A stretch of 55,427 bases of DNA from Kiritimatiellia bacterium (GCA_007134465.1 SLKS01000018.1:1-55427), one strand, 5' to 3'; positions 12,665 through 55,427 are shown, counted from the stretch's first letter. The notes: generated by a model not told the origin, from the sequence alone. Translations and numbers: made by a program.

Positions 12665-13690
12665 TTAGGCGTCAGAGCCGTGTCCGGTTGTTTCATCGCC
12701 GGAGATGGCCTTGCGCATGGACGTATCGGCTTCGATATTCTGCATGCGATAGAAATCCATGACGCCGAGATTGCCCTCGCGGAAGGCTTGGGCCATGGCG
12801 CGCGGCACTTCGGCGCGGGCTTCGACGACTTTCGCGTTCATTTCCTGCACGCGCGCCTTCATTTCCTGTTCCTGGGCCACGGCCATGGCGCGCCGGCCTT
12901 CGGCTTCGGCCTGCCGCATTTTCTTGTCGGCCTCGGCCCGTTCGGTTTCGAGCATGGCGCCCACGTTCGCCACGTCGGCGGCGCCCGCCACGCTGATGTC
13001 GGCGATGTCGATCGAGACGATTTCGAAGCCTGTTTGCGCGTCGAGCCCGCTGGAGAGCACCTTGCGGCTGATCTGATCGGGGTTCTCGAGTACGTCCTTG
13101 TAGGTGAGCGAGGAACCGATGGCGCTGACGATGCCCTGGCCGACGCGCGCGATGATCGTGTCCTCCTGCGCGCCGCCGACGAGCCGGTCAATGTTCGCCC
13201 GCACCGTTACGCGCGCCTTGACCAGCAGACGAATGCCGTCCTTGGCCACGGCGTCCAGATAGCCGGACGTGCCCTGATCGTGCGAGGGGCAGTTGATGAC
13301 CTTGGGCTGCACGCTGGTGCGCACGGCTTCCATTACGTCGCGGCCGGCCAGATCGATCGCGGCGGCTTTCTGGAACGTGAGATCTATGTTGGCCTTGTCG
13401 GCGGCGATCAGGGCGTTGACCACGTTGATCACATCGCCGCCGGCCAGATAGTGCGCTTCCATATCGTCGGTTGCCACGTTCAGGCCGGCCTTCACGGTAC
13501 GGATGCGCGCGTCCACGATGAGCGCGGGCGGCACGCGCCGCAATTTCATGCCCACCAGCGACAGCAGCGACACGCGCGCGCCGGACATCAGCGCCCGTAC
13601 CCAAACTCCGATGAAATGGAAGAATATGCCGACAATCACCAGCACGATTATGCCGACAACGACAACGACGACTTTGACCAGATTTTCCAT
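12665..13690 (-). CDS. floA: Flotillin-like protein FloA (UPF0365/YqfA, SPFH superfamily)
   Basis: 341-aa ORF. N-terminal TM then [30 protein letters not shown] and an alanine/glutamate-rich coiled tail, characteristic of FloA. Confidence 0.85.
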
Positions 13691-37524: not shown

Positions 37525-38577
37525 ATGATCGTGCTGGGGATCGAAACGTCTTGCGACGAAACCGCCGCCGCCGTCGTGCGGGACGGGCGGGAGACGCTGT
37601 CGAACGCGGTGCGCAGCCAGGCGGCTTCGCATGCGCCCTATGGCGGCGTCGTGCCGGATATCGCCGCGCGGCAGCATGTGGATGCGTTGGCGCCTGTAAT
37701 CGGGCAGGCCATGCGCGAGGCCGGGCTGGCCTGGGACCGGCTGGACGCCGTCGCCGCAACTTGCGGGCCGGGCCTGTCCAGTTCGCTGCTGATCGGCCTC
37801 GCGGCCGGTCAGGCGCTGGCGCGCCGTTTGGGGCGGCCGTTGTACGCGGTCAATCATGTGGAAGCGCATCTCTATTCTCCGTTTCTGGCCGCAGGCCGTT
37901 CCGCGTTCGAACGCGCCTGTCCGTGCGTGGCCCTGATCGTATCCGGCGGTCACACGCTGCTTGCCCTCGCCGAGGCGCCCGGCCGCTATCGGCTTCTGGG
38001 CCAAACGCTCGACGACGCCGCCGGCGAAGCGCTCGACAAGGCCGCCATCGCTCTCGGACTCGGCTATCCGGGCGGACCGGCCATCGAACAGGCCTCGCAG
38101 GGAGGCGATCCGCGCCGCATCGCCTTCCCGCGCGCGCGGCCGCGGCGGCCCAATCCGTTTCTCGGAACCATGGATCCCGACTTCTGTTTCAGCTTCAGCG
38201 GCTTGAAAACGGCGTTGATCTACTGGCTGAAAGCCCATCCCTTCGCCGACGGAGCCGATCGGCGCGAACGACTGCCTTCCGTCGCCGCCAGTTTTCAGGA
38301 AGCCATTGTCGCCGCGCTCTGCGACCGTTGCCAACGCGCCGTGCGCAAGACCGGCGTCGCAACGCTGATCGCAGGCGGCGGCGTAACTCTCAATGCGCGC
38401 TTGCGCGAGGCGCTCGCGGCGCTCGCCCGAAACAACAACGTGGAATTGCGGCTCGCCGCGCCGGCCTTTTGCGGAGACAACGCCGCCATGATCGCCGCGC
38501 TCGCCGGCATCGGTCTCGGGCAGCCTGTCGCCGGCGCTTGCGACGCGAATCCTTCGCTTGCGCTTGGCGCCGCTTGA
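37525..38577 (+). CDS. tsaD: tRNA N6-adenosine threonylcarbamoyltransferase
   Basis: ORF 37453..38577 trimmed to MIVLGIETSCDETAAAV. It has HVEAH and GGVTLN motifs. Confidence 0.92.
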   Translation: MIVLGIETSCDETAAAVVRDGRETLSNAVRSQAASHAPYGGVVPDIAARQHVDALAPVIGQAMREAGLAWDRLDAVAATCGPGLSSSLLIGLAAGQALARRLGRPLYAVNHVEAHLYSPFLAAGRSAFERACPCVALIVSGGHTLLALAEAPGRYRLLGQTLDDAAGEALDKAAIALGLGYPGGPAIEQASQGGDPRRIAFPRARPRRPNPFLGTMDPDFCFSFSGLKTALIYWLKAHPFADGADRRERLPSVAASFQEAIVAALCDRCQRAVRKTGVATLIAGGGVTLNARLREALAALARNNNVELRLAAPAFCGDNAAMIAALAGIGLGQPVAGACDANPSLALGAA

Positions 38578-38626
38578 CAACCGCGCGGTTTTTCGGCATG
38601 GTTCTTCCTGTTGCTGTTCCGTGTAC

Positions 38627-38697
38627 GCGGGTGTAGCTTAGTGGTAAAGCTCCAGCCTTCCAAGCTGGCTACACGGGTTCGATCCCCGTCACCCGCT
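38627..38697 (+). tRNA. tRNA-Gly (anticodon UCC)
   Basis: Hand-folded cloverleaf. Acceptor GCGGGTG/CACCCGC, D-stem GCTT/AAGC, anticodon stem CCAGC/GCTGG with loop CTTCCAA, T-arm ACGGG-TTCGATC-CCCGT. Total 71 nt. CCA is not encoded. Confidence 0.9.
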
Positions 38698-38781
38698 CCG
38701 CGTTTTTTTCCCGTTGTCTTTTTCTCGCGCTCCGTTCTCTTTCTGTTCACGAAATTTTTTTCGAAAAAAATTCTTTTTGTG

Positions 38782-38809
38782 TTGACACAAAGCGCCGAAT
38801 AATTAAATT
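38782..38809 (+). promoter_or_regulatory. Sigma70-like promoter candidate (TTGACA-N16-TAAATT) upstream of the lysine-rich ORF
   Basis: Perfect -35 TTGACA at 38782-38787 and an AT-rich -10 TAAATT at 38804-38809, in an unusually AT-rich spacer. It is preceded by the AT palindrome GAAATTTTTTTCGAAAAAAATTC (38751-38773). Confidence 0.4.
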
Positions 38810-38981
38810 GTTTCTTCAACACGATACGAAACGTCCGAATTGGACATGATCGTTCGTGCCTTGTGGTGAGCCTCGACGGGAAACGCGCAAGCGTTTCCGC
38901 CTTCGGCAACGAAGAGGACGGGGATCACGACATGACAATCAACTCCGGGCGCATGCTCGGAGGGAGGGGAGGTGATCGGTC

Positions 38982-39104
38982 ATGGTCGCGAAGAAAAAGA
39001 AAGCCGTGAAGAAAGCAGTGAAGAAGGCGCCGGCGAAGAAGAAGGCGGTGAAGAAAGCTGTGAAGAAAGCCGTGAAGAAAGCGGTGAAGAAGAAAAAGAA
39101 GTAA
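38982..39104 (+). CDS. Lysine-rich histone H1-like / nucleoid-associated small basic protein (40 aa)
   Basis: Not in the ORF track (<60 aa). ATG at 38982 follows GGAGGGAGGGGAGG. Translates to MVAKKKKAVKKAVKKAPAKKKAVKKAVKKAVKKAVKKKKK, stop TAA 39102-39104. A hairpin and a strong terminator follow. Confidence 0.6.
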   Translation: MVAKKKKAVKKAVKKAPAKKKAVKKAVKKAVKKAVKKKKK

Positions 39105-39154
39105 GCGACTGCCGATCACCGAAGAAACGCGGTTGCGTTTCCGGTGACGATTGC

Positions 39155-39197
39155 GAAATGACGGCCAGGGGGCAACCTCCGGCCGTCATTTCTTTTA
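39155..39197 (+). terminator. Rho-independent terminator
   Basis: 12-bp perfect stem GAAATGACGGCC / GGCCGTCATTTC followed by TTTT. Confidence 0.6.
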
Positions 39198-39297
39198 AGG
39201 TTCTGGACATCCGGCCGGGAAATGATAGGGTGCCATGGCGCGTTGGAATCGGCGCCGATCCGGTGTGTCGCGCACCCGACCCGCAAGGAGAATGTTT

Positions 39298-40008
39298 ATG
39301 TCCGTCTGGTTGTTCTCTTCGTCTTCCCTGCCGCTGGCCGATGTGCTTTCCGCTTTTGCCCGATCCAATCCGGCCGGCAAGATCATTGTCGCTTTCCTGT
39401 TTTTCGGTTCCATTGCGGTGTGGTCGCTTATGGCGACGAAATTTCGCGAGCTTATCGTTGTCCGCCGCGCTTCCCGGCGCTTCTTGCGCCTGTATCGCCA
39501 GCAACGGCGTCCAACGGCTCTGTACGGAGACCGCCGTGCGCCCGAGGGCAATCCGTTGGGCATTCTCTATGACGGCGTATGCGAAACGCTGGCCGCGGGC
39601 CGAAGCGATGCGGCGGGCGGTCCGCGCTGGAACGCGGCACGGCTCAACGCGGTGCGCAACGCCGCCGACCGAGCGGCCGCAGAACAGATATTGCGGCTCG
39701 AAGAAAACATGAGCCTGCTGGCCACCGCCACGACCGCCGCCCCGTTTCTCGGACTGCTGGGCACCGTATGGGGCGTGATGGAGGCTTTCATGGGCATGGG
39801 CGAGACCGCCTTGCTTTCCGCCGTGGCGCCCGGCATCTCCGGCGCGTTGCTGACCACGGTCGTCGGCCTGCTGGTGGCGCTGCCGTCGGCGATCGGATAC
39901 AACACGCTCAGCGCCTGGATTCGCCATCTGTCGGTCATGATCGACAATTTCTCCGGGGAACTCATCGCCGACCTGGAAACGTTTGCCGCCGAAGAAGGCG
40001 ACGGCTAA
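39298..40008 (+). CDS. tolQ: Tol-Pal system protein TolQ (MotA/TolQ/ExbB proton channel)
   Basis: ORF 39235..40008. Start MSVWLF, 7 nt after AAGGAG. Motif [19 protein letters not shown]. Operon context with tolR-tolA-tolB-pal. Confidence 0.85.
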
Positions 40009-43957: not shown

Positions 43958-43982
43958 CCCCAAACTTCGCTCGCTTTGGGGC
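43957..43982. terminator. Bidirectional hairpin between convergent purM and OMP genes
   Basis: GCCCCAAA-N10-TTTGGGGC fills the 24-bp gap between the two stop codons. Confidence 0.45.
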
Positions 43983-45514
43983 TAAAACTCGTGCCGATAG
44001 ACGAAGCGGGCGGAAACGATGTCGCGTTCGTAGGAGAGGGCGTCCGACCGGCTGTCGCGTTCGATGCGGTAGTAGTAGGCGTCGAACCGCGTTTTGCGGG
44101 TGACCGCCACGCCGGTTCCGATTCGCCCCCACCATGTGCGGTAGTCGAAGCGCCAGGCTTCGTCCGCGTCCGCGCCCTCGCGCGCCGGCCGGTTCTCGCG
44201 CAGGGAATAGCCGGTGGCGGCCCGCAGCCGGACCGTGCGGGTCAGCGGGTAGGAGACACGCAACTGGCCGGCCAGATGGCTGAACCCGTTCACGTCCGAC
44301 CGGCTCGGCTCGATGCGGTCGTAGCCAAGCTCGATGCCCGCGCGCAGCGTTTCGTATTCCCAGTTCATTTTGTATCCGAGACGGTCGGCCGTCTCGTACG
44401 CCGAACGATAGCCTTCCCGTAACGTTCGGGCCGCCTCGAATTCGTGCGTGAGCCCTTTCCACACTTCCCCCTCGAACTGCAACGTGGCGCCGCCGACCCA
44501 GGAGCCGCCGCCCCGCTCGCCGCCGCCCCGCTCGCTGCTGTCCGGCTCGCGGCTGGCCACGCGCGTGACGCCATAGCCCGCCCAGCCGCTTACGGAGGTT
44601 TGCGGAAAAAGCCGCGCCCGCGAAAACACCGTGTATTTCTCCGAAGAAAAATCGGAGCGGTGACGCGCCGCATAGTCGGTTTGCCGAAACCGGGCCTTGA
44701 GCCCCGCGATCCAGAACGGATTGAGCCGCTGTTCGTACGCCAGGCTTTCGCTCCATGTGACGCGCTCCTGATCCCGGCCGGCCGCGGTATGGCCCCAAAA
44801 ATCCTCGCGCGCGAGCGACGCCGCCAGATTCCGGTCACGATCCATGAGCCAGTCGGCGTCCAGCCCAATTCGGTTGCGAGTGTATTTCAAACGTTCGCCG
44901 CCATAGACATCCTCGATGCCGCGCGTGTCCACGTAGTCGGTCCGATGCGTGAAATGGTTGTAGGCCGTTCCGCGGACGAACGGCGTGGGCCGAAAAGACG
45001 TGGACAGCGTGGCCCATATGCCTTCGTCTGCCAGATCGAGGCGAAACGCGTCGGCTTGCGTGCCGAGCGGATAATGCTCGTAGGAAGCGGCAACCGACAC
45101 GTCCAGATCCATGTGCCGGCTGACGATCACATAGTTGCGCGTGCGCAGGGTGGTCGTCAGCGGAAACTCGGACCCGTCCTTGCGGATGGCGCCGCGCCGG
45201 TTCGCGAAGAGAAAATCGGTGCCTGCGCCCGAACTGCGCGTCCAGCGATAGCCGAATGTCTGCGTGAAGCCCACGTTCGAATAGAACGGGCCGATGCGCA
45301 ACAGGGCATAGGGCGGCACGACCGCTTCGCGATGATTGGCGAAGCGCAGCTCCTGGGCCAGGCCCGCCTGGCCGGCAACAACGCTCAGAACCGTTGCCAG
45401 CGCAATGGCCTCGATTATTCCTTTCCCGCCGTGATTTGTGCCGGCATAGCGCCCGTCTTCTTCCGACCCTTCGACAATCTTAAGAAACCGATCTTTTGCT
45501 TTCCTGCGATTCAT
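43982..45514 (-). CDS. Putative outer-membrane beta-barrel protein
   Basis: 510-aa ORF with an N-terminal signal-like segment, alternating aromatic/polar beta-strand pattern (many Y/R/T/G), and a terminal ...FVYRHEF with C-terminal Phe. Confidence 0.6.
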   Translation of the reverse strand: MNRRKAKDRFLKIVEGSEEDGRYAGTNHGGKGIIEAIALATVLSVVAGQAGLAQELRFANHREAVVPPYALLRIGPFYSNVGFTQTFGYRWTRSSGAGTDFLFANRRGAIRKDGSEFPLTTTLRTRNYVIVSRHMDLDVSVAASYEHYPLGTQADAFRLDLADEGIWATLSTSFRPTPFVRGTAYNHFTHRTDYVDTRGIEDVYGGERLKYTRNRIGLDADWLMDRDRNLAASLAREDFWGHTAAGRDQERVTWSESLAYEQRLNPFWIAGLKARFRQTDYAARHRSDFSSEKYTVFSRARLFPQTSVSGWAGYGVTRVASREPDSSERGGGERGGGSWVGGATLQFEGEVWKGLTHEFEAARTLREGYRSAYETADRLGYKMNWEYETLRAGIELGYDRIEPSRSDVNGFSHLAGQLRVSYPLTRTVRLRAATGYSLRENRPAREGADADEAWRFDYRTWWGRIGTGVAVTRKTRFDAYYYRIERDSRSDALSYERDIVSARFVYRHEF

Positions 45515-45766
45515 GGCTCTACTCTCGGGATTCGGGCCGTGAACTGGTTCATGCCGTAGTCGGATTCGAGCATGTTCACCACCAGCTCTTCCAGGGCAAC
45601 GCGGGACACTTCCATTTCACCTTCCGACGACAGGCGCTTCGTCGGCATGCACAAGACCGGCCCCTTGCAACAAACGCTGCGATTCCGCGCTGTGTATGTT
45701 CCGCTTGAACTGAGCGCGGCTATCCTCGCCCCTGGCGATCAATTCGATAACCTCTATTGCTTCCAT
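45511..45766 (-). pseudogene. Heavily deleted remnant of an AlbA_2/Schlafen-type DNA-binding, HATPase-like regulator
   Basis: Two short frames, hand-translated. MEAIEVIELIARGEDSRAQFKRNIHSAES... (45766-45617) matches the typical N-terminus (LIxxGESxxLEFKR). EVSRVALEELVVNMLESDYG matches the REALxExxxNALxHRDY motif. Only ~250 nt of a normally >1.2-kb gene remain. Confidence 0.35.
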
Positions 45767-48372
45767 AGCTGGTATATCTCCTTTCGGCGGGCAAATGCCT
45801 CGCGCCCGCCTTCCATGATCGAAACGATCGCCTTCTGAACGTCCGGGGCATCGATGCTGCCGATCTGTATGTCGCTCGCGCCGGACGCGAAGGAGCAGCC
45901 CCCGACTTGCTCGGAATCGCCAAGGACAGGGAAGTTCGCGTTGTGAGTGGCGAAAATGAATTGGACGTTTGGCTTCAGCGAACGGATGAGCTTGATTACA
46001 TCCTCAAAGATGGTCTGATTGTCAAGATCGTCTTCGGGCTGGTCGATGACGATCAGGTCGTTGTCACGCTGGCTAAGGATGAAAAGGATCAGAGCCGATG
46101 CGCGTTGCCCAAGCGAGTGATCGCGAAGATTCTTGCCATGATACATGATGTCGTAGGTGTTCGGAACCTGCCATGTAAGCAGAGATGCCTTCGCTTCATT
46201 GAAGTAACGGCGGAACGTGTCGCCCGAGTCCCCCATGCCGGAGCAGACCGTATCCAAGCTTTGGAAGAGCGAGATGAAGTCAGCATGTCCATCCAACGCT
46301 GTCTCCAGTGTCGACTCGCGGAGTCGGCTTCCGCGGAATTGCGCCTTCAGTTCCTCCAGCATTCTTTCCCGATTGCCTTTGTATTGCGGGAGAATTCGCA
46401 ATGCGTCCTGGCTCGCGTTGAGTTTTTCAATTTCGCTTTCTGCCTCCTTGAACTCCCGATGCCAGAGATCATTCAGGCGTTTGAGTTCCTTGAAAAGCAC
46501 GGCCTCCAAGGCGCTCTTTCGGCTTCGGCTCTTCCCCGTTTCGGAGAGCGCGAGTGTAACCTTCTGCAGTTTCGCATTCAGTTTCACGAAATCGTCAGGG
46601 CGTACACTGACCGTCCCGTTCTGTTGAAGTTTCTCGCTTAACTCCCGCTCGATCGCTGCGAACTCCTCCTTCAAGGCATCGCGCCGTTTCTGGATATCAT
46701 CGAACTTCTCCCGCAGCGCACGGGAGTCGGACGCAGCCTCGCCAATCGCAGTTCGGAGTTTATCCGGCACTTTGCGGATGCGGTCGAGAATGACGTTCAG
46801 CTCGTCCATCACATCCCGATTCTCTTTGGATTCCAGGCTCGGCAGCGCGGCCAGTTCGCTCTCCTGTTCGGCGAGGAACGCCCCCGCGTCGCGAACGAAT
46901 TTGTCGACCGTATCCACTGCGCGGTGCGCATGAGTCACATCGGCGTTAAACTGCACCTGGCGTTTGAGCTGCTCTTCGACGCCATGTTCGCGAAACAACT
47001 TGAGGCGGAATTCCGTGTCGCGTTTCTCGTTCCGGTACTCGGCTTCAACCGCATCGATATCCTTCAGTTTGTCCAGGCTTCCGAGCACATCAAGGACGCG
47101 TTGCTTCTGTGCCGCAATTTCGTGCCGCACAGCGTCGAGCTTTGACCCAACGAGACGTTCGACCAACTCGGATTCGGATCCCTCGCCACGTTTGACCAGC
47201 TCTTTCTGACCGAAGAAGAGCGGATTCTTGAGGGGAACAGCGATGCCCGGCTGGAGTTCGCCATTATGGTACACGTCCCGGCTTTCGTTGAGTATGCGAC
47301 GCACCTCGAAGCGACGGCCTGCGGAGTCTTCCGTTTCGACAACTACCTTCCCGCCACTCTTCAGAGCATACCTGACTAGCTCCCGCTTGTATGCGAGGTC
47401 TGTTTCATCCGCTGTGCCGGGCATGGGCAAATCAAGTCCGTACCGAAGACACTCGAGAATGGCCGACTTGCCGCTTCCTCGGATTCCGATTAGACAACTC
47501 ATCTCGGGCGAAAGATCAAGACGTTTGCCATTGAGAATTCCGCCCTCGAATCGAATGGCGCGCACCCACGAGTGCGGCTGTTTCTGTGCTATTTTTTCGG
47601 ATAGTCGGTCTGCTCCGGGTTTCAGGGAAAACTGAACCGCTTCAAACGTAAAAGCTCCTATCTTGAGGAATACGGGTTTCCCTTTGCCAACCTCCTCCAT
47701 CTTCTTCGGGTCGGAGCCCTCGACTTCCGCCGGATACCAGTCGCCCAGCCAACTCTCGACTTTCTTCTTCAGATCGCGTGTTCGGACCTTCTGAAAGGCG
47801 GCTGTGCGCAGACGGAAAAGGTCGCTCCGGCCCAGTTCTTGAATGCGTCCGCCTTTGAGACCGCCGAAGAGACCGTTATCCGCTTCGACGTGTGCGAAGA
47901 TCAGCAAGTAGTCTCGCTGGAATTTGTCCAACTCCCGAATCGTCTCCAGGAGATCATGGTTCGATCTGGCATTACTGTTGTCGCAATTCGATTGCCCCCC
48001 GAATGTCACGCTCCGAAAACCGTTGATATAGTCGGTCTGCTCCTGGTTTGATATCCACTCGTCGCTGAAGACAACAAGGGTGTGGATGCCGTTAGCCCCG
48101 TCCTTCACGGAGAGTTCGATTCCTGGCATCAGATAGATATCCTCTTTTCCAGCCGCTTTTCGCAGGGCCTTGAACTCGTCCAAATCGAACTTGTTGTGAT
48201 TTGCGATTACACCAACGCGAATATCGGCCTGCTTGAGAGCGGCGACGTATCGGACAACGAAGTCCTGTTCGTTGCCCGCATCGCTGAACTCCTTGTCGCG
48301 GTGAGTGTGCAGGTGAAAATCCGCGCGGACCCACCGACTTCCATTCTTGAAGAACTCGGTTTGGCTGCTCAT
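45754..48372 (-). CDS. PHP phosphoesterase fused to SMC/ABC-type (Rad50/SbcC-like) ATPase, a candidate defence effector
   Basis: ORF 45754..48582 trimmed to MSSQTEFFKNG (AAGGAG RBS, ATGA overlap with the upstream ORF). PHP motifs: DFHLHTH, IANHN, GIELS, FAHVE. Walker A is GIRGSGKSA. About 350 aa of coiled coil follow. Signature-like SLGQRASAL, Walker B LIVIDQPEDDLD, H-loop FATHNANF. Confidence 0.8.
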   Translation of the reverse strand: MSSQTEFFKNGSRWVRADFHLHTHRDKEFSDAGNEQDFVVRYVAALKQADIRVGVIANHNKFDLDEFKALRKAAGKEDIYLMPGIELSVKDGANGIHTLVVFSDEWISNQEQTDYINGFRSVTFGGQSNCDNSNARSNHDLLETIRELDKFQRDYLLIFAHVEADNGLFGGLKGGRIQELGRSDLFRLRTAAFQKVRTRDLKKKVESWLGDWYPAEVEGSDPKKMEEVGKGKPVFLKIGAFTFEAVQFSLKPGADRLSEKIAQKQPHSWVRAIRFEGGILNGKRLDLSPEMSCLIGIRGSGKSAILECLRYGLDLPMPGTADETDLAYKRELVRYALKSGGKVVVETEDSAGRRFEVRRILNESRDVYHNGELQPGIAVPLKNPLFFGQKELVKRGEGSESELVERLVGSKLDAVRHEIAAQKQRVLDVLGSLDKLKDIDAVEAEYRNEKRDTEFRLKLFREHGVEEQLKRQVQFNADVTHAHRAVDTVDKFVRDAGAFLAEQESELAALPSLESKENRDVMDELNVILDRIRKVPDKLRTAIGEAASDSRALREKFDDIQKRRDALKEEFAAIERELSEKLQQNGTVSVRPDDFVKLNAKLQKVTLALSETGKSRSRKSALEAVLFKELKRLNDLWHREFKEAESEIEKLNASQDALRILPQYKGNRERMLEELKAQFRGSRLRESTLETALDGHADFISLFQSLDTVCSGMGDSGDTFRRYFNEAKASLLTWQVPNTYDIMYHGKNLRDHSLGQRASALILFILSQRDNDLIVIDQPEDDLDNQTIFEDVIKLIRSLKPNVQFIFATHNANFPVLGDSEQVGGCSFASGASDIQIGSIDAPDVQKAIVSIMEGGREAFARRKEIYQLWKQ

Positions 48373-48773
48373 GGCACGCTCCTTTGAACATTGATCTGAA
48401 TCACGCATTCTGCCGGGCGTGAGTAACGGATGCCGGGCGCGGTGTCTTGTTCGGTAACGGAAAGATTCGACAGGGAGTTCGTGGCCTGAATCTTGTCGGC
48501 CACAACCGCCAGCGCCAGGCAAAACATCTCTTCCGGCAGATCGGCTGGCGGTTCGAGTTGGCTGTCGTACCGTTTTGCCCACAGATTTGTTATAGGAAAC
48601 GCTGCGGCTTCAGAACCTATAACAGCGCCAGTCTCGTCAAGCAGGTCGAATGTCACCTGCGCTTCCCATCTGTGCATGCCAGGACCGCTACGGATTTGAT
48701 GCGTTCTGTAAACCAGCTTCTTCGTGATCATATCGGCAGCGTCCTTCTGTGTTATCCGCCATGCTCGCGGCAA
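48369..48773 (-). CDS. Hypothetical protein (120-134 aa), coupled to the PHP-ATPase
   Basis: ORF 48369..48773. Its stop overlaps the PHP-ATPase ATG (ATGA). An alternative start MITKKLVY is at 48731. No family recognised. Confidence 0.5.
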   Translation of the reverse strand: MPRAWRITQKDAADMITKKLVYRTHQIRSGPGMHRWEAQVTFDLLDETGAVIGSEAAAFPITNLWAKRYDSQLEPPADLPEEMFCLALAVVADKIQATNSLSNLSVTEQDTAPGIRYSRPAECVIQINVQRSVP

Positions 48774-49327
48774 GCATTCAATTTCAGACTGCCCCTCTCC
48801 GTCACAACCACATATTCGCCGGGAGGTAAATCCATGCCTTGCAGTTTGTTCTTGATGTATTCCAGGGCATGACCGTGCAGCAGTTCAACCAATTTTCTTA
48901 GCAAAGTTTCTATCTCGATCAACTTGAATCCGTTTGGCAGCCAAGATTTGGCTTCTATTGTGATTGTTTTATCTTGCCACACAATAATTCTTGGATTTGT
49001 TGCGTATTTCACCCCGAACAATTCTACATCCGCATCAAGGTGCATGAAAACCTCGTTTCGCAACTTAAGCATGCTCTCGTGTAGCTTCTTGTTACGGGCC
49101 GAGATTAGATTTTTCGCAGGAAGACATCCCAAGTTGTTGCTGGACATAAATGGTGCGGCATAATACCCGCAGATGGCCCCAAACAGCGACATGGAGACAG
49201 GATGCTTCCCCGCCTCAATGCTTTTGTTCAGGAGCGATAATATATCCTGGGCCTTCTTGAATGAACTCATGGCATTCCATGCCAGCATGAATTCCCTGTC
49301 AGTCCGGATGGAATAGGGCTTGGCCAT
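48752..49327 (-). CDS. Hypothetical protein (191 aa), low-GC
   Basis: ORF 48752..49327. It starts 5 nt after the mod stop with a GGAGG RBS inside the mod 3' end. Hand-counted GC is ~40-42% in a ~63% GC genome. No family recognised. Confidence 0.55.
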   Translation of the reverse strand: MAKPYSIRTDREFMLAWNAMSSFKKAQDILSLLNKSIEAGKHPVSMSLFGAICGYYAAPFMSSNNLGCLPAKNLISARNKKLHESMLKLRNEVFMHLDADVELFGVKYATNPRIIVWQDKTITIEAKSWLPNGFKLIEIETLLRKLVELLHGHALEYIKNKLQGMDLPPGEYVVVTERGSLKLNACREHGG

Positions 49328-49332
49328 GGATT

Positions 49333-52008
49333 CTACACCTCCATCACCTTGGTGCTTTCCTCGCCGAACTGGGAGATGACGCGGACGGCGATTTTCTGGC
49401 CGGCGCGGGCCAGGGGGATGGGGTGCGAACGGTGGTTGTAGACGCGCTCGAAGGCTTCATCGTCCACCTCGATGCGCAGCGTCTTTTCCGCCGCGCGTTT
49501 GGCGGAGGTTCCGGCGAGCGATTCAAGCCCCTTTTTCCATTTGGCGAACTCGCCTTTGTCGCCGCCGCAGAAGAATACCTGCCGCACCACGAAGTTGCTG
49601 CCGTCGTAGTCGCTGTCCACCATCCAGTAGGCAATGTCGGCCGCGTCGCGCGATTTGACCACATCCCGGATCGGATCGTAAATGTCCAGCCCGAGAATTT
49701 CGAGTTCCACCTGCGGATGTCCGTCTTCGGATTTGCCCTTGAGCTTGCGCACGGCAATGTCCGGTTCGCCGATGGTGACGAACGAGGCGGCTTTCCTGTC
49801 CTTCTTGAGCAGGCCGTCCTGCATGAGGTCGTCGTGCATGCGCACTTTGGTGACTTCAAAGCTGCCGGCGCTCATGGTCACGTTCCGGTTGCTGATGGCG
49901 GATTCGAACGAGAAGCCCAGGATAATCAGCCAATCGGCGTCGCCGCGCGCGCGGCATTCCTTGACGGCTTCATTCACGGCCTGGCGCGAGACGGTCCCGA
50001 ATTTCGGGCCGATATGGAAGTAGGCTTTCTTTTCCACGGCGGCCGCCTGCTTCTTTTTGCCATTGCCGGACGCACCTTGATAAAAACCCTCGGCGTGAAG
50101 ATAGGCGGAGGTCAGGCGATCGACGCGGGTGAAGACCGCGTGTTCGTTCTTGATGCCGTTCTTGACGCCGGCGGATTTGAGATGCTCGAAGATGCGCTCC
50201 TCGAAAAGCTGCAGGTCGTCCGCGTCGGTAGCGGCCTGTTCCAACGCGCCGGGCGCGACCGGATCGAAATTCTGCAGCGTTTCCACCGTGAAGGGACCGG
50301 CTACGCGCAGCTTCTTCCTGTCCTCTTCGGGCTGATCGTAGAGCGTCTCGGTGGCGGGCGGCTCGTCGTTGGCAATGCTTTTGAGCGTGATGTGCGGCAC
50401 GGTCTTGTAGATGAAGCCCTGGCGGATATCCTCGCCCTGCCGATCGTAAAGCTTGTAATACGGGAACGCGGCGGTCATCAGGCGCGTCTTGGCGATGTTC
50501 AACGCAATCCGGCTGGTATCAATCGTGATCCAGCGCCGCCCCCATTGCTCCGCCACATACGCCGTCGTCCCGCTCCCGCATGTGGGGTCGAGAACCAAAT
50601 CGCCAGGGTCGGTGGTCATCAGGAGGCAGCGTTGGATTACCCTGCCAGCCGTTTGCACAACATAAACCCTGTCTGTTGCTCCGGCCGTATCGGTCCAATT
50701 GTTGCCTAAATTAAAAACAGGAAAGTCATCAAAGTATCTAACAAAAGACAATCGAGAGCCTTGGGCAACAACCCGTTTCTGTGATATCAATCTGTTCATA
50801 CCATCAAGGGTTGTTGTCCAACCTCTTGAGCCTGACGGCATATACGTGCGGCCCTCAAACTTCACAGGAAATTGCATTGCCGTTCCGATTCCTGATGGCC
50901 GCCCCTGTCGTTGAGACGTTATGTCGCCAAGCCGTAAAATTCTTGCGCCGTTGGGCAATGAGAGAGGATCACGGATTTCCGAAGGGGTCAAACGCCGCCG
51001 AGAACCGTCTTTCAGTTCAACATACTGATACATCGATCCACCAACGCCGCCCAATTCTTTATCTGAATAAAGCTGGCGATATTTCAGTGAATCACTGTTG
51101 CGAGCATACCAAATCACATAGTCAACTGTACCCGGAAGATATCTTGCAGTTTGCCCGGCCGTTTTCTGCACAGTAATCAAGCTCACAAAGTTCTCGCTAC
51201 CGAAGGCTTCATCCATCAGGCATCGGACGAGGTGAACGTTTTCGTCGGAGATTTGGACGAAGCAGGAGCCGGATTCCGCAAGCAGGTCTTTGGCGACGAG
51301 CAGGCGGTCGCGGAGGTAGCTCAGGTAGGAATGGATGCCGAGTTCCCAGGTGTCGCGGTAGGCTTTGATCTGTTCGGGTTCTCCGCAGAGGTGTTCGTCC
51401 TTGCCGTCGGTGACGTTGCGGTCGTTGAGTTTCATCTGCCAGTTGCCGCCGTACTTGATGCCGTAGGGCGGATCAATGTAGACGCATTGCACCTGACCGG
51501 CCATGCCTTCGCGCTGCAGCAGGGAGTTCATCACCAGCAGGCTGTCGCCCTGGATCAGGCGGTTGGACCAGCCGTCCTTATGGCTGTAGTATTCGGAAAT
51601 CTTCTCGATTTCGTCCATGTCGAGGGCATGGCCGAAAAGCTCGTTGGCGGAGAAGAAGTCGAGCTGGCTGACGGACGGCTCGCGCAGCCGGTAGAAGTTG
51701 CGGATGAGGACTTCGGGCGCGATGTGTTCGTGGCGGTAGAGGGACCGGATATCCACCGTCAACCGGTCTTCGGCGTCTTCCATGCCGTATTTGCGCATCC
51801 AGAACAGTTCCGGATCCTGTCCGCGATGCACCACCGGGTTTTTCGGATAGGCGGCTTTCGGCTGCGCGTGTTTCACCTTCGGGCTGGCGGTCTCGGCGCC
51901 GGCCTCCTCGCGCGATGGAATATGCGCGCGCTTGCTGCTTTTCGCATGCTTGATTGCGTCAACGGCCATGGTTCTTCTCTTCCCATCTGCAATAATCGCA
52001 TCCGTCAA
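49333..52008 (-). CDS. mod: Site-specific DNA methyltransferase, beta-class N6A/N4C (Type III Mod-like), 891 aa
   Basis: Motif [17 protein letters not shown] precedes motif [27 protein letters not shown] (order IV..TRD..I = beta class). It has long N- and C-terminal extensions. Confidence 0.88.
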
Positions 52009-52056: not shown

Positions 52057-52932
52057 CTAGCCAGCCTCCGGGAAACCCATTTTTTCGGTCACAGGCAACT
52101 GTTGCTCCCGCAACAAAGCCATCAGGCGATGCGTCCATTGATTCTGCGGCTCGACAATATCAACAATATGCGCGAGAAAAACCAAAGTGTTGTATACATT
52201 GCGACGACTTAGCGGGTTCACGCTGTTAGCAATGGTCGAGGGATGCCGTTTGGGTATGGCCACAGTTATGGTAAAACGCCTGTTCCAGAGTCGGGCATGA
52301 TGCGCACATAGATTGCGAATGTACACCCCGTGTTCCAGCAGCGATTTCATAAGATCAGGGCTAATGCCGTAGATTCCGGCTATCTTTTTCCGGTCATGTT
52401 CATGGCCTATGTTCTCGTAGAAACGGCTGAGCAACCCAAACGTCATGATTTCGCATACAGCCCAGATCGGCGGCCGATGCGTGTTGTGTTTGTTTTTGAA
52501 ATGCGAAACAAACACCTCGTGACTGCGCGCCAATTCATCGTCGAGTCGATTCAATGCGCTGGTATGTCGCTGCGCATTCCTGAAAACAGACGGGATTTCG
52601 TAAGCCTGAGCGCCATATTCGTGTCCAAGGATATACGCCCAGTGCGAACGAACCGATATCTCCAGCCTTTTCAATGCCTCCATTACCAGCGTTCGCAATT
52701 GCCGATCGAAACAGTACAATCCCCACATGTTGCCAAATGTAGTCCCTGGCAGAAAACGATCCGGTTTTCCCGGCTCTGTCAACGGAAAACGATAGGCCGA
52801 TATACGATAGTAATTGTGGTGCGCAAGACAGTGCAGAGCAAAAGACCTGTTTTCAACAGTTAGGCCTCGGCCCTCAAGGATCGCAAGCTGCTCTTCATAG
52901 GTTTTTGCGGGTTTGCTGAAGCTCATTGGCAT
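52057..52932 (-). CDS. Abi_2 (AbiD/AbiF-like) abortive-infection family protein
   Basis: 291-aa ORF. Contains YEEQLAILEGRGL, HHNYYRISAY, FDRQLRTLVMEALKRLEISVRSHWAY and IRNLCAHHARLWNR, the characteristic Abi_2 pattern. GC is ~50%. Confidence 0.85.
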   Translation of the reverse strand: MPMSFSKPAKTYEEQLAILEGRGLTVENRSFALHCLAHHNYYRISAYRFPLTEPGKPDRFLPGTTFGNMWGLYCFDRQLRTLVMEALKRLEISVRSHWAYILGHEYGAQAYEIPSVFRNAQRHTSALNRLDDELARSHEVFVSHFKNKHNTHRPPIWAVCEIMTFGLLSRFYENIGHEHDRKKIAGIYGISPDLMKSLLEHGVYIRNLCAHHARLWNRRFTITVAIPKRHPSTIANSVNPLSRRNVYNTLVFLAHIVDIVEPQNQWTHRLMALLREQQLPVTEKMGFPEAG

Positions 52933-53052: not shown

Positions 53053-55427
53053 TCATAACCCTGCGATTTTCGCGCGCAACTGGTTCTTGATGTCGCGGAT
53101 ATCGTTGGCCACTTCGATAAAGGCCCATGCGGGCTGGCCGTATTTTTCGCGCACGGCATTGACTGCCGGCAGCCAGCGGTTCTCCACATGCCATTTCTTT
53201 TCCGCCTTTTCCTTGTTCATCCCGGTTACCTCGACAATCAGATTCACCGGGCCGGCGTCGGTTTCGCAACGGGCGATGAAGTCCGGAAAATAGCGCTTGT
53301 CCTCGCCTGCCTGCACATAGGGGATCGAGAAACCGAGAAACGCGTTCTTGACGTATCTGCCGACAAGGCCTTCGTCGGCCAGTTCTTCCAGCGTCTTGGC
53401 CGCAATCTGTTCCCAGCTTTCGGTATCGGCCACAACGCAGTTGACATGACTGCGCGCGGTCGGGAATACCGGCCGGGTGGTGAGCCCGTGCACATGGCGG
53501 GTGCTGCCGACGGGGTTGTAGTAATTGAGGATGGGCAGAACCACATCGTCCCCGCGACGGCCGGACTGGATGGCCCGGACGATTCCGCAGAGATATTTTT
53601 CAGGGCTGTAGCACCACAGCAACTGCTTGAAACAGTCGCCATAGCATACCACGCGCGTGCGATACCACTCCTCGACAATGGCCCTGAGCTTGCCGAACTT
53701 CTGAAACTCGACATTGCCGTCTTCGTCCTTGAAGCTGTGCGCAAGCAGCTCGCGGGCGATCCTGTAGATCACCTGCTGGTCGCGCAGCTCGCGCAAGTCG
53801 TCCACGCCAAGCTCTTCCTCGGCATCGGAGACCGCTGTCGCCAGGACGGTACGGGTCGGAATGTTGGGGCCGATCTCGAAGTTCTCGATGTGCGAGAAAT
53901 CGGCGGTGATTTCGCCGTCCGGCGTTTCCACGCGGTAGCCGTCCACATTCAGGAACTCGATTTCATAGTCGCTCTGCCGCTCGGGCAGCGCGCGAATAAC
54001 CGTCTGCTCGCGCGGGGGAGGCGGCGCGGACTTGCCGCCCTTGAACATTTTGAACGGCACGCCGATGATATGCGCATATTCCGGCGGGAACTTCCAGGTC
54101 TTGATGCGGCGTTTGTCATCGGTCGGCAATCCGGCCTTGTCGTATCCCTGCAAGTAGTAGTTCTTGCGACGCAGGGCGCGTCCGGCCACCTGCTCGCACA
54201 GAAGCTGAGAACCGAAGGCGCGAATGCCGACTATATGGGTGACGGTATTGGCGTCCCAGCCTTCGGTCAGCATCGAAACCGAAACCACGCAGCGAATGTG
54301 CGCCCCGAGCGTGCCGGGCTTGCCGACGGTGTTGACAACCTCGCGCAGGATTTCGGCGTCGGCGATGTTTTCCGCCGCCCCCGCGCCGTGCAGCCGTGCG
54401 TAATCGCGCTTGAACAGTTCGATTTCCGAGGCGAAGACGGTTTTGAAATCGTCGCCGACCTGATCGGAATTCTCCAGCGCGTCGCTGTCAATCAGCAATG
54501 TCGGCGAACGTTCGAGCGGGTTCCCGGTGTTTTCGTCGTAATTGGAGAACAGCGGCAGATTGCCGCCAATCGAAACAGTGTTGCCTTCGCGGTCGATCGA
54601 ACGTTCATATCCGGCCATCCATTTGTAGACTTCCTTGGACACCGAAACATTGTTGCAGACGACGATAAAGACCGGCGGGGAGTCGAAAAGCTCGCGAGTA
54701 CGCTCGAAATCCTCCTCGTAATGCCGATAGAACTGCCGCAAGGCCACGGCCAGCAGCTCCGGCATGGCGGGCGGAGTTTCCAGCAGGGTCTGTCCGGCTT
54801 CCTTGGCCGCCTTGCGCCGGGCTTTCATGCCTTTCTTGGGCAATCGGTCTTTTACATGCTCGTACAGATTCCGCAGCACGGGCATTTTCAGTTCCTGGGT
54901 ATTGTCGCTTTCAGGCAGAAACGGGATTTTGACCAGGCCGGATTCGATCGCCTCGATCAGCCCGAAATCCGACGCCACCCACTCGAAGAGCGCATAGGCT
55001 TGGTGTCCCGAACCGGTCAAGTAATACGGGGTGGCGCTCAGATCGTAGATGTGGCCGACCTTGAAGCGTTTGCACAATTCTTTCAACCCGTTGTACCAAA
55101 CGGCGGCGCGCGCGTTTTCCTCGGCGGTGTTTTCGCCTTCGGTCCGCTGCCCCTTGCCGATGGGCTTGTAGCAATGATGCGCTTCGTCGTTCATGACAAG
55201 CAGGCGCGACCCGCTTTTGAACTTGCCCAGCATGCGGCGCATCGCCTGGCTGTAGTCCTCGCGAACATCCTGCTTGTTGCCGGCAGCGTCGAGTTTGCCG
55301 TCAAACGGAGTGCGCTTGTTGCCTTGCAAGGCGCGCGGCTCGAATCCGTGATAATTGGCGATGACAATTTTCGCGTTCAGTCCCGGCAGCAGCTTGCGCC
55401 AGCCGGGCGGGACAAGTGTGCGCTGGC
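53053..55427 (-). CDS. res: Type III restriction Res-like helicase-nuclease (5' end outside window)
   Basis: ORF 53053..55329. The frame stays open to the window edge (hand translation ...[21 protein letters not shown]). Motifs: DEAH (VMNDEAHHC), SAT (DLSATPY), [20 protein letters not shown]-terminal PD-(D/E)xK-like YFPDF...IVEVTGMNK is present. Walker A must lie upstream of the window. Confidence 0.85.

Follow-up and report, generated by a model that had tools for sequence, protein, structure and literature searches.

The name trl comes from the temperature restriction locus (TRL) of Photorhabdus laumondii (Hapeshi et al. 2020, PMC7554251), and the gene described here is a trlF homolog on the minus strand of a 55 427-nucleotide stretch of DNA from a Kiritimatiellia bacterium (GCA_007134465.1 SLKS01000018.1:1-55427; this whole stretch is hereafter called the window). 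The Photorhabdus TRL operon consists of trlR, encoding a small helix-turn-helix (HTH) regulator, trlF, annotated as a histidinol phosphatase but given no biochemical role in that study, and trlG, whose product contains AlbA_2 and HATPase_c_4 domains and was mis-annotated as recG (PMC7554251). The operon was induced on temperature upshift, and growth at 36 °C was permitted by loss-of-function mutations in trlG or by deletion of the whole operon; under selection trlG was inactivated by point mutation, a stop codon or insertion of an insertion sequence, leaving trlF intact (PMC7554251). The locus is patchily distributed, being found in 21 of 46 Photorhabdus genomes, and can be deleted (PMC7554251).

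Two further systems are relevant for comparison. Ppl, an anti-phage protein encoded in hotspots of P2-like prophages of E. coli, is reported to be a 3'-5' exonuclease acting on single-stranded DNA. It is kept inhibited by nucleoside triphosphates (NTPs), which bind its PHP domain as well as its NTPase domain, and is switched on when 3'-OH ends coincide with a depletion of nucleotides (PMC12904381; Xu et al. Mol Cell 2026, cited in PMC13434339). In SLFN-pAgo systems, a Schlafen plus GHKL module termed 'Schlatpase' is an ATP-assembled, tRNA-cleaving abortive-infection effector, and Schlatpase modules also occur in type I restriction-modification (R-M) operons (bioRxiv 10.64898/2026.05.29.728809).

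We propose that trlF of the window encodes a mobile member of the TrlF/Ppl superfamily, a PHP domain fused to an SMC/Rad50-like ATPase, which, as part of a defence module, would act as an exonuclease that is gated by NTPs and senses DNA ends, and whose partner has been lost at this locus; we give this reading a probability of about 0.68. The value of the locus lies in its context, as the TRL of Photorhabdus is distributed in the manner of a mobile defence module. In the literature searched we found no link of the TRL operon to immunity, and no account of its embedding in methylation-based defence loci or of the nesting of Ppl within the TrlF model.

Identification of trlF and its relationship to Ppl

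The gene and its leader were located as follows.

48373..48389, minus strand: trlF leader with an AGGAG Shine-Dalgarno sequence, read from the sequence; its end is the 5' limit of homology to the trlFG module of the closest relative, locus L005
45754..48372, minus strand: trlF coding sequence (PHP phosphoesterase fused to an SMC-like ABC ATPase), 872 amino acids plus stop codon, from the open reading frame (ORF), its translation and NCBIfam NF045780

The reading frame stays open in the 5' direction as far as a GTG at 48582. The ATG at 48372 was assigned as the start because the AGGAG motif lies 7 nt upstream of it, homologs are nearly all 870-874 amino acids long (with copies of the same length and 100-68% identity in many phyla) and DNA homology to L005 in blastn begins 17 nt upstream of it. 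A scan for promoters and terminators around trlF gave nothing above chance. A first-pass annotation, made by a model from the sequence alone, had recognised the same 872-residue frame without stating its strand, and every PHP and ATPase motif that it quoted was found in the translation (DFHLHTH, IANHN, GIELS, IHTLV, FAHVE, GIRGSGKSA, SLGQRASAL, LIVIDQPEDDLD and FATHNANF).

The predicted polypeptide matched NCBIfam NF045780, 'TrlF family AAA-like ATPase', with 502.9 bits (E = 2.9e-150; residues 10-868 on model positions 1-944), against a cut-off of 350 bits. By this profile match the protein is a member of a known and named family, TrlF, and not an unnamed novelty. It has the domain order of the TrlF of Photorhabdus, and gammaproteobacterial plasmid TrlF proteins annotated by NCBI were ~46-47% identical to that of the window over 99% of its length. 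When 1.84 billion cluster representatives were searched exhaustively with HMMER, 437 clusters were returned at E <= 1e-30.

The window protein scored far below the cut-offs of two other models, with 128.7 bits in three separate stretches against Ppl (NF042955; cut-off 1000 bits) and 141.9 bits against Spaf_1101 (cut-off 475 bits). The PADLOC Ppl model gave 89.8 bits, and there were weak PADLOC matches to LmuB, AriA and JetC. True Ppl proteins, identified on two viral contigs (L109 and L110) by 1137 and 1153 bits on the Ppl model, also exceeded the TrlF cut-off, with 494-499 bits on NF045780. Because these proteins pass both cut-offs, Ppl is, on profile evidence, a narrow sister subfamily nested within the broad TrlF-family model. 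Overall identity between the window protein and true Ppl was ~22%, with E = 7e-12 for the PHP domain and 41% identity (E = 2e-19) in the region of the signature, Walker B and H-loop motifs. The two have the same two-domain architecture, a similar length and a mobile, defence-island lifestyle, and Ppl shares all PHP and ABC motif residues with TrlF, including the unusual IDQPED form of Walker B. They differ in that Ppl has a canonical DxH motif and is natively encoded alone, whereas TrlF of the window has DxK and belongs to a clade natively paired with TrlG. The lead to ppl in the first-pass annotation was therefore right in a broad sense: true Ppl proteins do fall within the TrlF model, but the protein of the window fails the Ppl model and already carries the name TrlF.

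Predicted structure and conserved residues of TrlF

Four parts were distinguished in the protein.

47653..48339, minus strand: PHP domain, residues ~12-240 (AlphaFold2 pLDDT ~85-92, Foldseek, conserved ligands, register with YcdX and RNase AM)
47176..47580, minus strand: N-terminal lobe of the ABC head, residues ~265-399, with Walker A G296-S303 and Q-loop Q389 (Pfam AAA_23, AAA_15, AAA_29; Foldseek)
46414..47175, minus strand: antiparallel coiled-coil arm, residues ~400-653, with apex loop 509-518 (DSSP of the model)
45757..46413, minus strand: C-terminal lobe of the ABC head, residues ~654-872, with S753-L-G-Q, I776-D-Q-P-E-D-D-L-D784 and H810 (Pfam AAA_21, SMC_N)

Pfam searches with TrlF returned ABC-type ATPase families only, AAA_21 above threshold and SMC_N, AAA_23 and AAA_15 below it. 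The PHP domain was not detected by Pfam, and a single-sequence phmmer search of TrlF against the PDB gave no match; because both missed it, the identity of the domain was drawn from structure prediction, Foldseek and profile alignments. An AlphaFold2 model built from 61 homologs had a mean predicted local distance difference test score (pLDDT) of 73.7, with residues ~12-240 confident, and Foldseek matched this confident N-terminal part to BAD_1165 (3e0f, 3o0f), the PHP domain of DNA polymerase III alpha (2hpi, 3e0d) and RNase AM (9etk) in the PDB. A weak profile alignment of the N-terminal domain with YcdX was in register, H20/H22 corresponding to H7/H9 and H59 to H40. The alignment with RNase AM, also weak and in register, placed D26 at the Asp of HxHTxxSDG, E86 at the Glu of GIEIS and H97 at the next His.

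Measured against the nine metal ligands of YcdX, which we take to be the reference set, TrlF keeps eight positions (H20, H22, D26, H59, E86, H97, H161 and D221), all of them invariant or nearly invariant among relatives; D18, H20, H22, E86 and D221 remained invariant in alignments down to 20-23% identity. Position 26 has Asp for His, as in the TrpH/RNase AM subtype. At the ninth position the His of the final DxH is replaced by Lys (D221-P-K223), a residue that is at least 90% conserved in the clade of the window protein, while true Ppl and a member from a P2-like phage retain DxH. As judged from these alignments the D221-P-K223 change is a clade-wide feature and not decay.

For the ATPase and helical part, the top Foldseek matches in the PDB were SMC-type heads with coiled coils, namely those of MukB (7nyw, 3e-10), JetC (9qxx/8dk2), Smc (5xei) and Rad50 (7zr1/9q9m), and further matches of this type were RecF (5z67), RecN (4ad8) and AriA (8v46). 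Residues G296, G299, G301, K302, S303, Q389, S753, G755, I776-D-Q-P-E-D781, L783-D784 and H810 were invariant to 20-23% identity. DSSP placed the helices of the arm at residues 400-434, 439-461, 466-508, 519-533, 535-584 and 592-653, giving an insert of ~255 amino acids and ~450 amino acids between Walker A and the signature motif. The descending helix is broken at 585-595 by an invariant VSVRPDDF motif in which R591, D593 and F595 are invariant. No zinc hook (CxxC) was present, the apex loop 509-518 (LPSLESKENR) and its flanks being free of Cys.

The Walker B Asp is followed by Gln in TrlF (D777-Q778-P-E780), and this is again invariant. Rad50, SMC and OLD-type ABC ATPases have their catalytic Glu at the position after the Walker B Asp, and its classic replacement by Gln holds these enzymes in the ATP-bound state. 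The Gln is a hint that the head may serve nucleotide sensing rather than fast hydrolysis.

Rad50/SbcC with Mre11/SbcD, JetC of Wadjet, LmuB of Lamassu and AriA of PARIS have in common with TrlF an ABC head split by an antiparallel coiled coil and the combination of a nuclease with an SMC-like sensor. In TrlF the nuclease would be a PHP domain in cis, whereas theirs is supplied by another protein (Mre11, Toprim or Cap4). The arm of TrlF is short (~110-135 residues per strand), without zinc hook or hinge, and its Gln in place of the catalytic Glu is unlike Rad50-type ATPases. Family scans of the window proteins revealed no calcineurin-type phosphoesterase gene adjacent to trlF. The architecture given in the first-pass annotation, a PHP domain joined to a coiled-coil ABC ATPase of the Rad50/SMC kind, was borne out by the AlphaFold2 model and Foldseek, and its insert of ~350 amino acids shrank to the length given above. 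Its comparison with SbcCD/Mre11-Rad50 stands as an analogy of architecture and goes no further than that, in view of the missing zinc hook, the absence of an Mre11-type nuclease and the Gln for catalytic Glu. Its concern that the PHP ligands might be incomplete came down to K223.

The partner gene trlG and its loss from the window

Intact TrlG is a stand-alone protein with SLFN_AlbA_2 (Schlafen) and HATPase_c_4 (GHKL ATPase) domains. On three unrelated contigs (L001, L003 and L005) whose TrlF is 75-89% identical to that of the window, trlG encodes ~390 amino acids and starts 13 nt before the trlF stop. Pairing was assessed in 80 metagenomic loci with TrlF 45-75% identical, 78 of which had downstream sequence; trlG overlapped the 3' end of trlF in 77 of the 78, and the same pairing was seen on annotated plasmids. 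The exception (L061, 3530..7625) has a solo trlF, with which a preceding HTH-WYL-WCX regulator gene and a 109-amino-acid ORF form a series of overlapping frames. Regulators of the WYL type often govern defence systems.

In the window, trlG has been reduced to a remnant.

45511..45766, minus strand: trlG pseudogene remnant, 256 nt (tblastn with intact TrlG proteins and collinear blastn against L005)

Blastn aligned window 48389..45679 with 9985..12694 of L005 at 85.5% identity, a block that spans trlF and the first 88 nt of trlG. It is followed by three collinear trlG fragments, split by deletions of ~311, 365 and 231 nt (gaps at 12695-13005, 13049-13425 and 13483-13713 in L005 coordinates), so that ~900 of the 1167 nt of trlG are gone. 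The surviving fragments match TrlG residues 1-29, ~132-152, ~269-297 and the C-terminus. In tblastn with intact TrlG, fragments were confined to 45517-45766, and homology to L005 runs as far as the trlG stop codon (45511 in the window) and not a base further. The start of the remnant overlaps the trlF 3' end by 13 nt, the overlap of the Photorhabdus TRL being still visible here, and its translation is a 49-amino-acid peptide. A trlR was also absent, no similarity to the upstream regulators of related loci being detected in 48300..49400 or elsewhere in the window; the regulator upstream of trlF is variable in other metagenomic loci too. The window differs from the Photorhabdus TRL in having a trlG remnant, no trlR-type HTH gene upstream, and type III Mod/Res and AbiD genes as neighbours in place of polA/dsbA.

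The decay of trlG had escaped the first-pass annotation, which described a single-gene system. That description does not fit a clade paired with trlG almost throughout and known from a trlR-trlF-trlG operon (PMC7554251), nor is a native single-gene organisation of the Ppl type seen here, trlF of the window being solo only through the decay of trlG.

Alignment of 70 TrlG sequences (L005 numbering) showed the pattern E14-D15-x3-Q19-x-K21, with an invariant Gln where SLFN nucleases have Asp or Glu. E14, D15 and K21 were conserved, and the Schlafen box was kept (A36, F37, N39, G42, G43). TrlG matched the SLFN-GHKL part of the PADLOC pAgo model. The Schlatpase of SLFN-pAgo has the same two Pfam domains as TrlG and differs in being fused to Argonaute and in having E(x)4(D/E)xK, whereas TrlG stands alone beside TrlF, has E(x)4QxK and is non-functional in the window.

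By contrast with trlG, trlF has no frameshift, stop or radical substitution over 872 codons, and every catalytic residue is retained. The dN/dS of trlF against L005 was 0.088, which on this sequence comparison means that the gene is under strong purifying selection; the value averages the whole divergence between the window and L005 and cannot reveal selection after trlG was lost. At columns conserved to at least 95%, TrlF of the window has 10 deviations, all conservative (family median 6, range 0-29), and lineage-specific amino-acid changes numbered 37 against 24, a slight excess that was not significant. All three deletions fall in trlG (1.17 kb), and the longer trlF (2.62 kb) has been spared, an outcome with p ~0.03 if they were independent neutral events. 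This clustering hints at retention of trlF or selection against trlG, though the three may be one complex event.

Distribution and genomic context of trlF and trlFG

Full-length trlF copies were carried by 232 plasmids, and conjugative plasmids made up the majority of the matching records. Copies ~70% identical occur in unrelated phyla and in unrelated contexts. Relatives on viral contigs were solo genes in 33 of 34 cases, and a TrlF-family gene was present in the gpA-gpQ hotspot of a P2-like Yersinia phage.

The genes that accompany trlF were examined by scanning the flanks. Upstream on the same strand (54 loci scanned) were HsdR/ResIII, SNF2, N6_N4 and N6 methylases, HsdS and MmeI-type methylases, as well as genes for small ribbon-helix-helix or HTH regulators and GIY-YIG-like genes. 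Downstream (28 loci scanned) were HsdS in four, PglZ in three and DUF1156 with a D12-class methylase in three; given the PglZ and DUF1156/D12-class methylase flanks, trlFG therefore also occurs in BREX-like and DISARM-like loci. On the IncC E. coli plasmid pNDM-1_Dok01 (L008; NC_018994.1, 161140-175755) the genes form an operon with overlapping reading frames in the order HTH-hsdR-trlF-trlG-hsdS-PrrC-hsdM. The HTH protein of this operon is of the excisionase type and resembles the HTH protein of MADS, MAD1, with 65.7 bits (cut-off 80), and the PrrC homolog scored 471 bits. PrrC, like trlFG, is a backup gene inside an hsd operon, and it has no sequence relationship to TrlF. Two accessory modules, trlFG and PrrC, are thus carried within one type I hsd operon on a clinically important plasmid backbone.

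In the window the comparable arrangement of backup defences in an R-M operon is AbiD and trlF, within and beside a type III R-M pair. As far as ~45500 the G + C content of the window is 64-67%; with the trlG remnant it falls to 50-60% and stays there through to the last base. Because of this drop at ~45500, trlF is placed on the border of a low-GC defence island of foreign origin, acquired by horizontal transfer. The guess that the gene belonged to a defence island thus proved sound, given this island with its type III Mod/Res and AbiD genes and the relatives on plasmids and in phages. The order Res-Mod-trlF recurs in another locus, L044, where trlG is intact, Res is 43% and Mod 41% identical to those of the window, and the Mod gene is full-length and directly upstream of trlF.

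Proposed function and alternative explanations

By analogy with Ppl, the PHP part of TrlF is most likely an exonuclease. Homology with Ppl further suggests that the ABC head, in what would be a natural 'EQ' state, acts as a sensor of NTPs and DNA ends and not as a fast motor, and that it would release the PHP domain to digest invading DNA, starting at free 3' ends. Where the module is intact, TrlF would work with TrlG, the putative growth-arrest component, a role that fits the Photorhabdus suppressors, all of which are in trlG. TrlG is similar to the SLFN-pAgo effector module that cleaves tRNA in abortive infection, and the trlFG module would ride in methylation-based defence loci as a second layer. 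At the present locus the putatively toxic partner has been lost and trlF would persist without it, either because it is useful alone, like Ppl, or because it was orphaned recently. The DNA-end-sensing nuclease of the first-pass annotation matches the activity reported for Ppl (PMC12904381; Xu et al. Mol Cell 2026, cited in PMC13434339).

Several points weigh against the proposed exonuclease. Its nuclease activity is extrapolated from Ppl, with which TrlF shares only ~22% identity, and with Lys as the last PHP ligand the chemistry or the substrate may differ. The C-terminal head lobe was of low confidence and poorly defined in the AlphaFold2 model. The only phenotype described for the TRL is the growth arrest that Photorhabdus shows in dependence on temperature; none of the suppressors mapped to trlF, the larger gene (PMC7554251), so TrlF may be dispensable for that phenotype. 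The E(x)4QxK motif leaves the nuclease competence of TrlG in doubt, and it may not be a nuclease. Finally, trlG and trlR are missing from the window, and the near-constant pairing elsewhere argues that this copy of trlF may be non-functional.

Two readings of the solitary trlF, as a gene with a function of its own or as a recent orphan, carry similar weight. According to the former, which we consider possible, TrlF is a functional solo nuclease, a Ppl-like single-gene defence since the loss of trlG, which might degrade ends made by the adjacent type III restriction enzyme. The intact trlF with its good Shine-Dalgarno sequence and strong purifying selection speaks for this, as do the concentration of all three deletions in the smaller trlG (at p ~0.03, given independent and neutral events), the recurrence of the Res-Mod-trlF arrangement in L044 and the existence of solo members such as L061, 33 of the 34 viral loci, the gene of the P2-like phage hotspot and Ppl itself. 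Against it, trlG is kept in 77 of 78 loci of the clade at >=45% identity, the known phenotype requires TrlG and not TrlF (PMC7554251), and the window protein has the DxK of the paired clade where the solo phage members and Ppl have DxH. Furthermore, the dN/dS, as an average over the divergence from L005, is blind to the period after trlG was lost, and the deletions may be a single complex event.

Under the latter reading, an equally tentative one, the locus is an inert relic: the module was inactivated by loss of a toxic trlG, for instance in the wake of growth arrest or autoimmunity, leaving trlF as a functionless orphan of recent date that has not yet acquired lesions. The destruction of trlG by three deletions, the absence of trlR and the near-obligate pairing of trlF and trlG elsewhere are consistent with this, as is the slight, non-significant excess of lineage-specific changes (37 vs 24). 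Selection in Photorhabdus readily removes trlG function with trlF left intact (PMC7554251). Against it stand the 872 codons free of lesions with all catalytic residues kept, the few and conservative substitutions at conserved columns, and again the bias of the deletions towards the smaller gene (p ~0.03 if independent).

TrlF could also be part of a physiological growth regulator, a temperature- or stress-responsive growth-arrest switch as proposed for Photorhabdus, which we think unlikely. The sole experimental phenotype is of this kind, the TRL being induced on temperature upshift and loss of trlG leading to growth at 36 °C (PMC7554251). However, the module is patchy and horizontally transferred; plasmids and phages carry it, and it is embedded in R-M loci of types I and III as well as in BREX-like and DISARM-like ones. 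Such a distribution is typical of defence modules, which as a side effect are often toxic under stress. In addition, trlF was not involved in the phenotype, and the arrest component, trlG, is gone from the window.

A housekeeping repair enzyme, a single-chain analogue of SbcCD/Mre11-Rad50 for chromosomal hairpins and breaks, is highly improbable and was rejected on the distribution of trlF: Foldseek did match Rad50, RecF, RecN and SMC heads with coiled coils, and a PHP domain could replace Mre11/SbcD, but trlF does not fit the syntenic housekeeping family that the first-pass annotation had named as the alternative, lying in a low-GC island among R-M and Abi genes, with ~70% identical copies in unrelated phyla and contexts, 232 mostly conjugative plasmids and phage relatives, no zinc hook, Gln for the catalytic Glu after Walker B, and a locus that in Photorhabdus is deletable and confined to 21 of 46 genomes (PMC7554251).

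Beyond the proposed exonuclease itself, a wider scheme may be sketched, which we regard as speculative. TrlF-TrlG might be an unrecognised, widespread two-gene immune module of methylation-based loci, in which an EQ-locked sensor and PHP exonuclease controls or accompanies a Schlafen-GHKL arrest effector; the window would then represent an intermediate, with the effector deleted and the sensor-nuclease selected, on a route to solo Ppl-like defences. Three family-wide peculiarities bear on the mechanism, namely the Gln after the Walker B Asp, the DxK of the TrlG-paired clade and the E(x)4QxK of TrlG. The window copy is a natural trlG knockout in which any independent function of TrlF could come to light; its interest would be the higher if trlFG is a defence system or the partner-less TrlF is active.

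Neighbouring genes in the window

Every gene of the island is read from the minus strand. The features flanking trlF and the trlG remnant were as follows.

53053..55427, minus strand: BPTD_3080-family restriction endonuclease, type III-like Res (NCBIfam NF046055, 750.5 bits, model positions 265-969)
52057..52932, minus strand: AbiD/Abi_2 abortive-infection gene, between res and mod (Pfam Abi_2, 179 bits; PADLOC AbiD, 245 bits)
49333..52008, minus strand: type III R-M methyltransferase Mod, 891 amino acids (Pfam N6_N4_Mtase; PADLOC MTase_III, 628 bits)
48752..49327, minus strand: 191-amino-acid ORF between mod and trlF, island context outside the conserved module, with no Pfam, NCBIfam or PADLOC match
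48369..48731, minus strand: candidate small ORF of up to 120-134 amino acids, no family match, its stop overlapping the trlF start (ATGA)
43982..45514, minus strand: 510-amino-acid ORF with no Pfam, NCBIfam or PADLOC match, host-like in G + C content and ending in ...FVYRHEF

The Res frame is open to base 55427, where the gene is cut by the end of the contig, and a 5' truncation of the gene was rejected on these grounds. The AbiD gene between Res and Mod is another second defence embedded in an R-M locus. The 191-amino-acid ORF was considered as an accessory gene and rejected, as its only similarity, to an ORF upstream of trlF in L082, was insignificant and it is missing at the corresponding position of L044. 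The candidate small ORF at 48369..48731 is also missing from the equivalent position there.

On the other side of trlF, the stop of the trlG remnant overlaps (ATGA) the first ATG of the 510-amino-acid ORF. A C-terminal Phe motif is typical of outer-membrane beta-barrel proteins, and this ORF is probably a host outer-membrane protein gene abutting the island. It was rejected as a replacement partner for TrlF on account of its lack of similarity to TrlG, its host-like G + C content and its C-terminal Phe motif. Genes on the host-side flank were purM, pal, tolB and a TonB/TolA-like gene. A dip in G + C content to ~0.56 at 38500..39500, beside the only tRNA gene of the window, tRNA-Gly(TCC) at 38627..38699 on the plus strand, could mark another small insertion.

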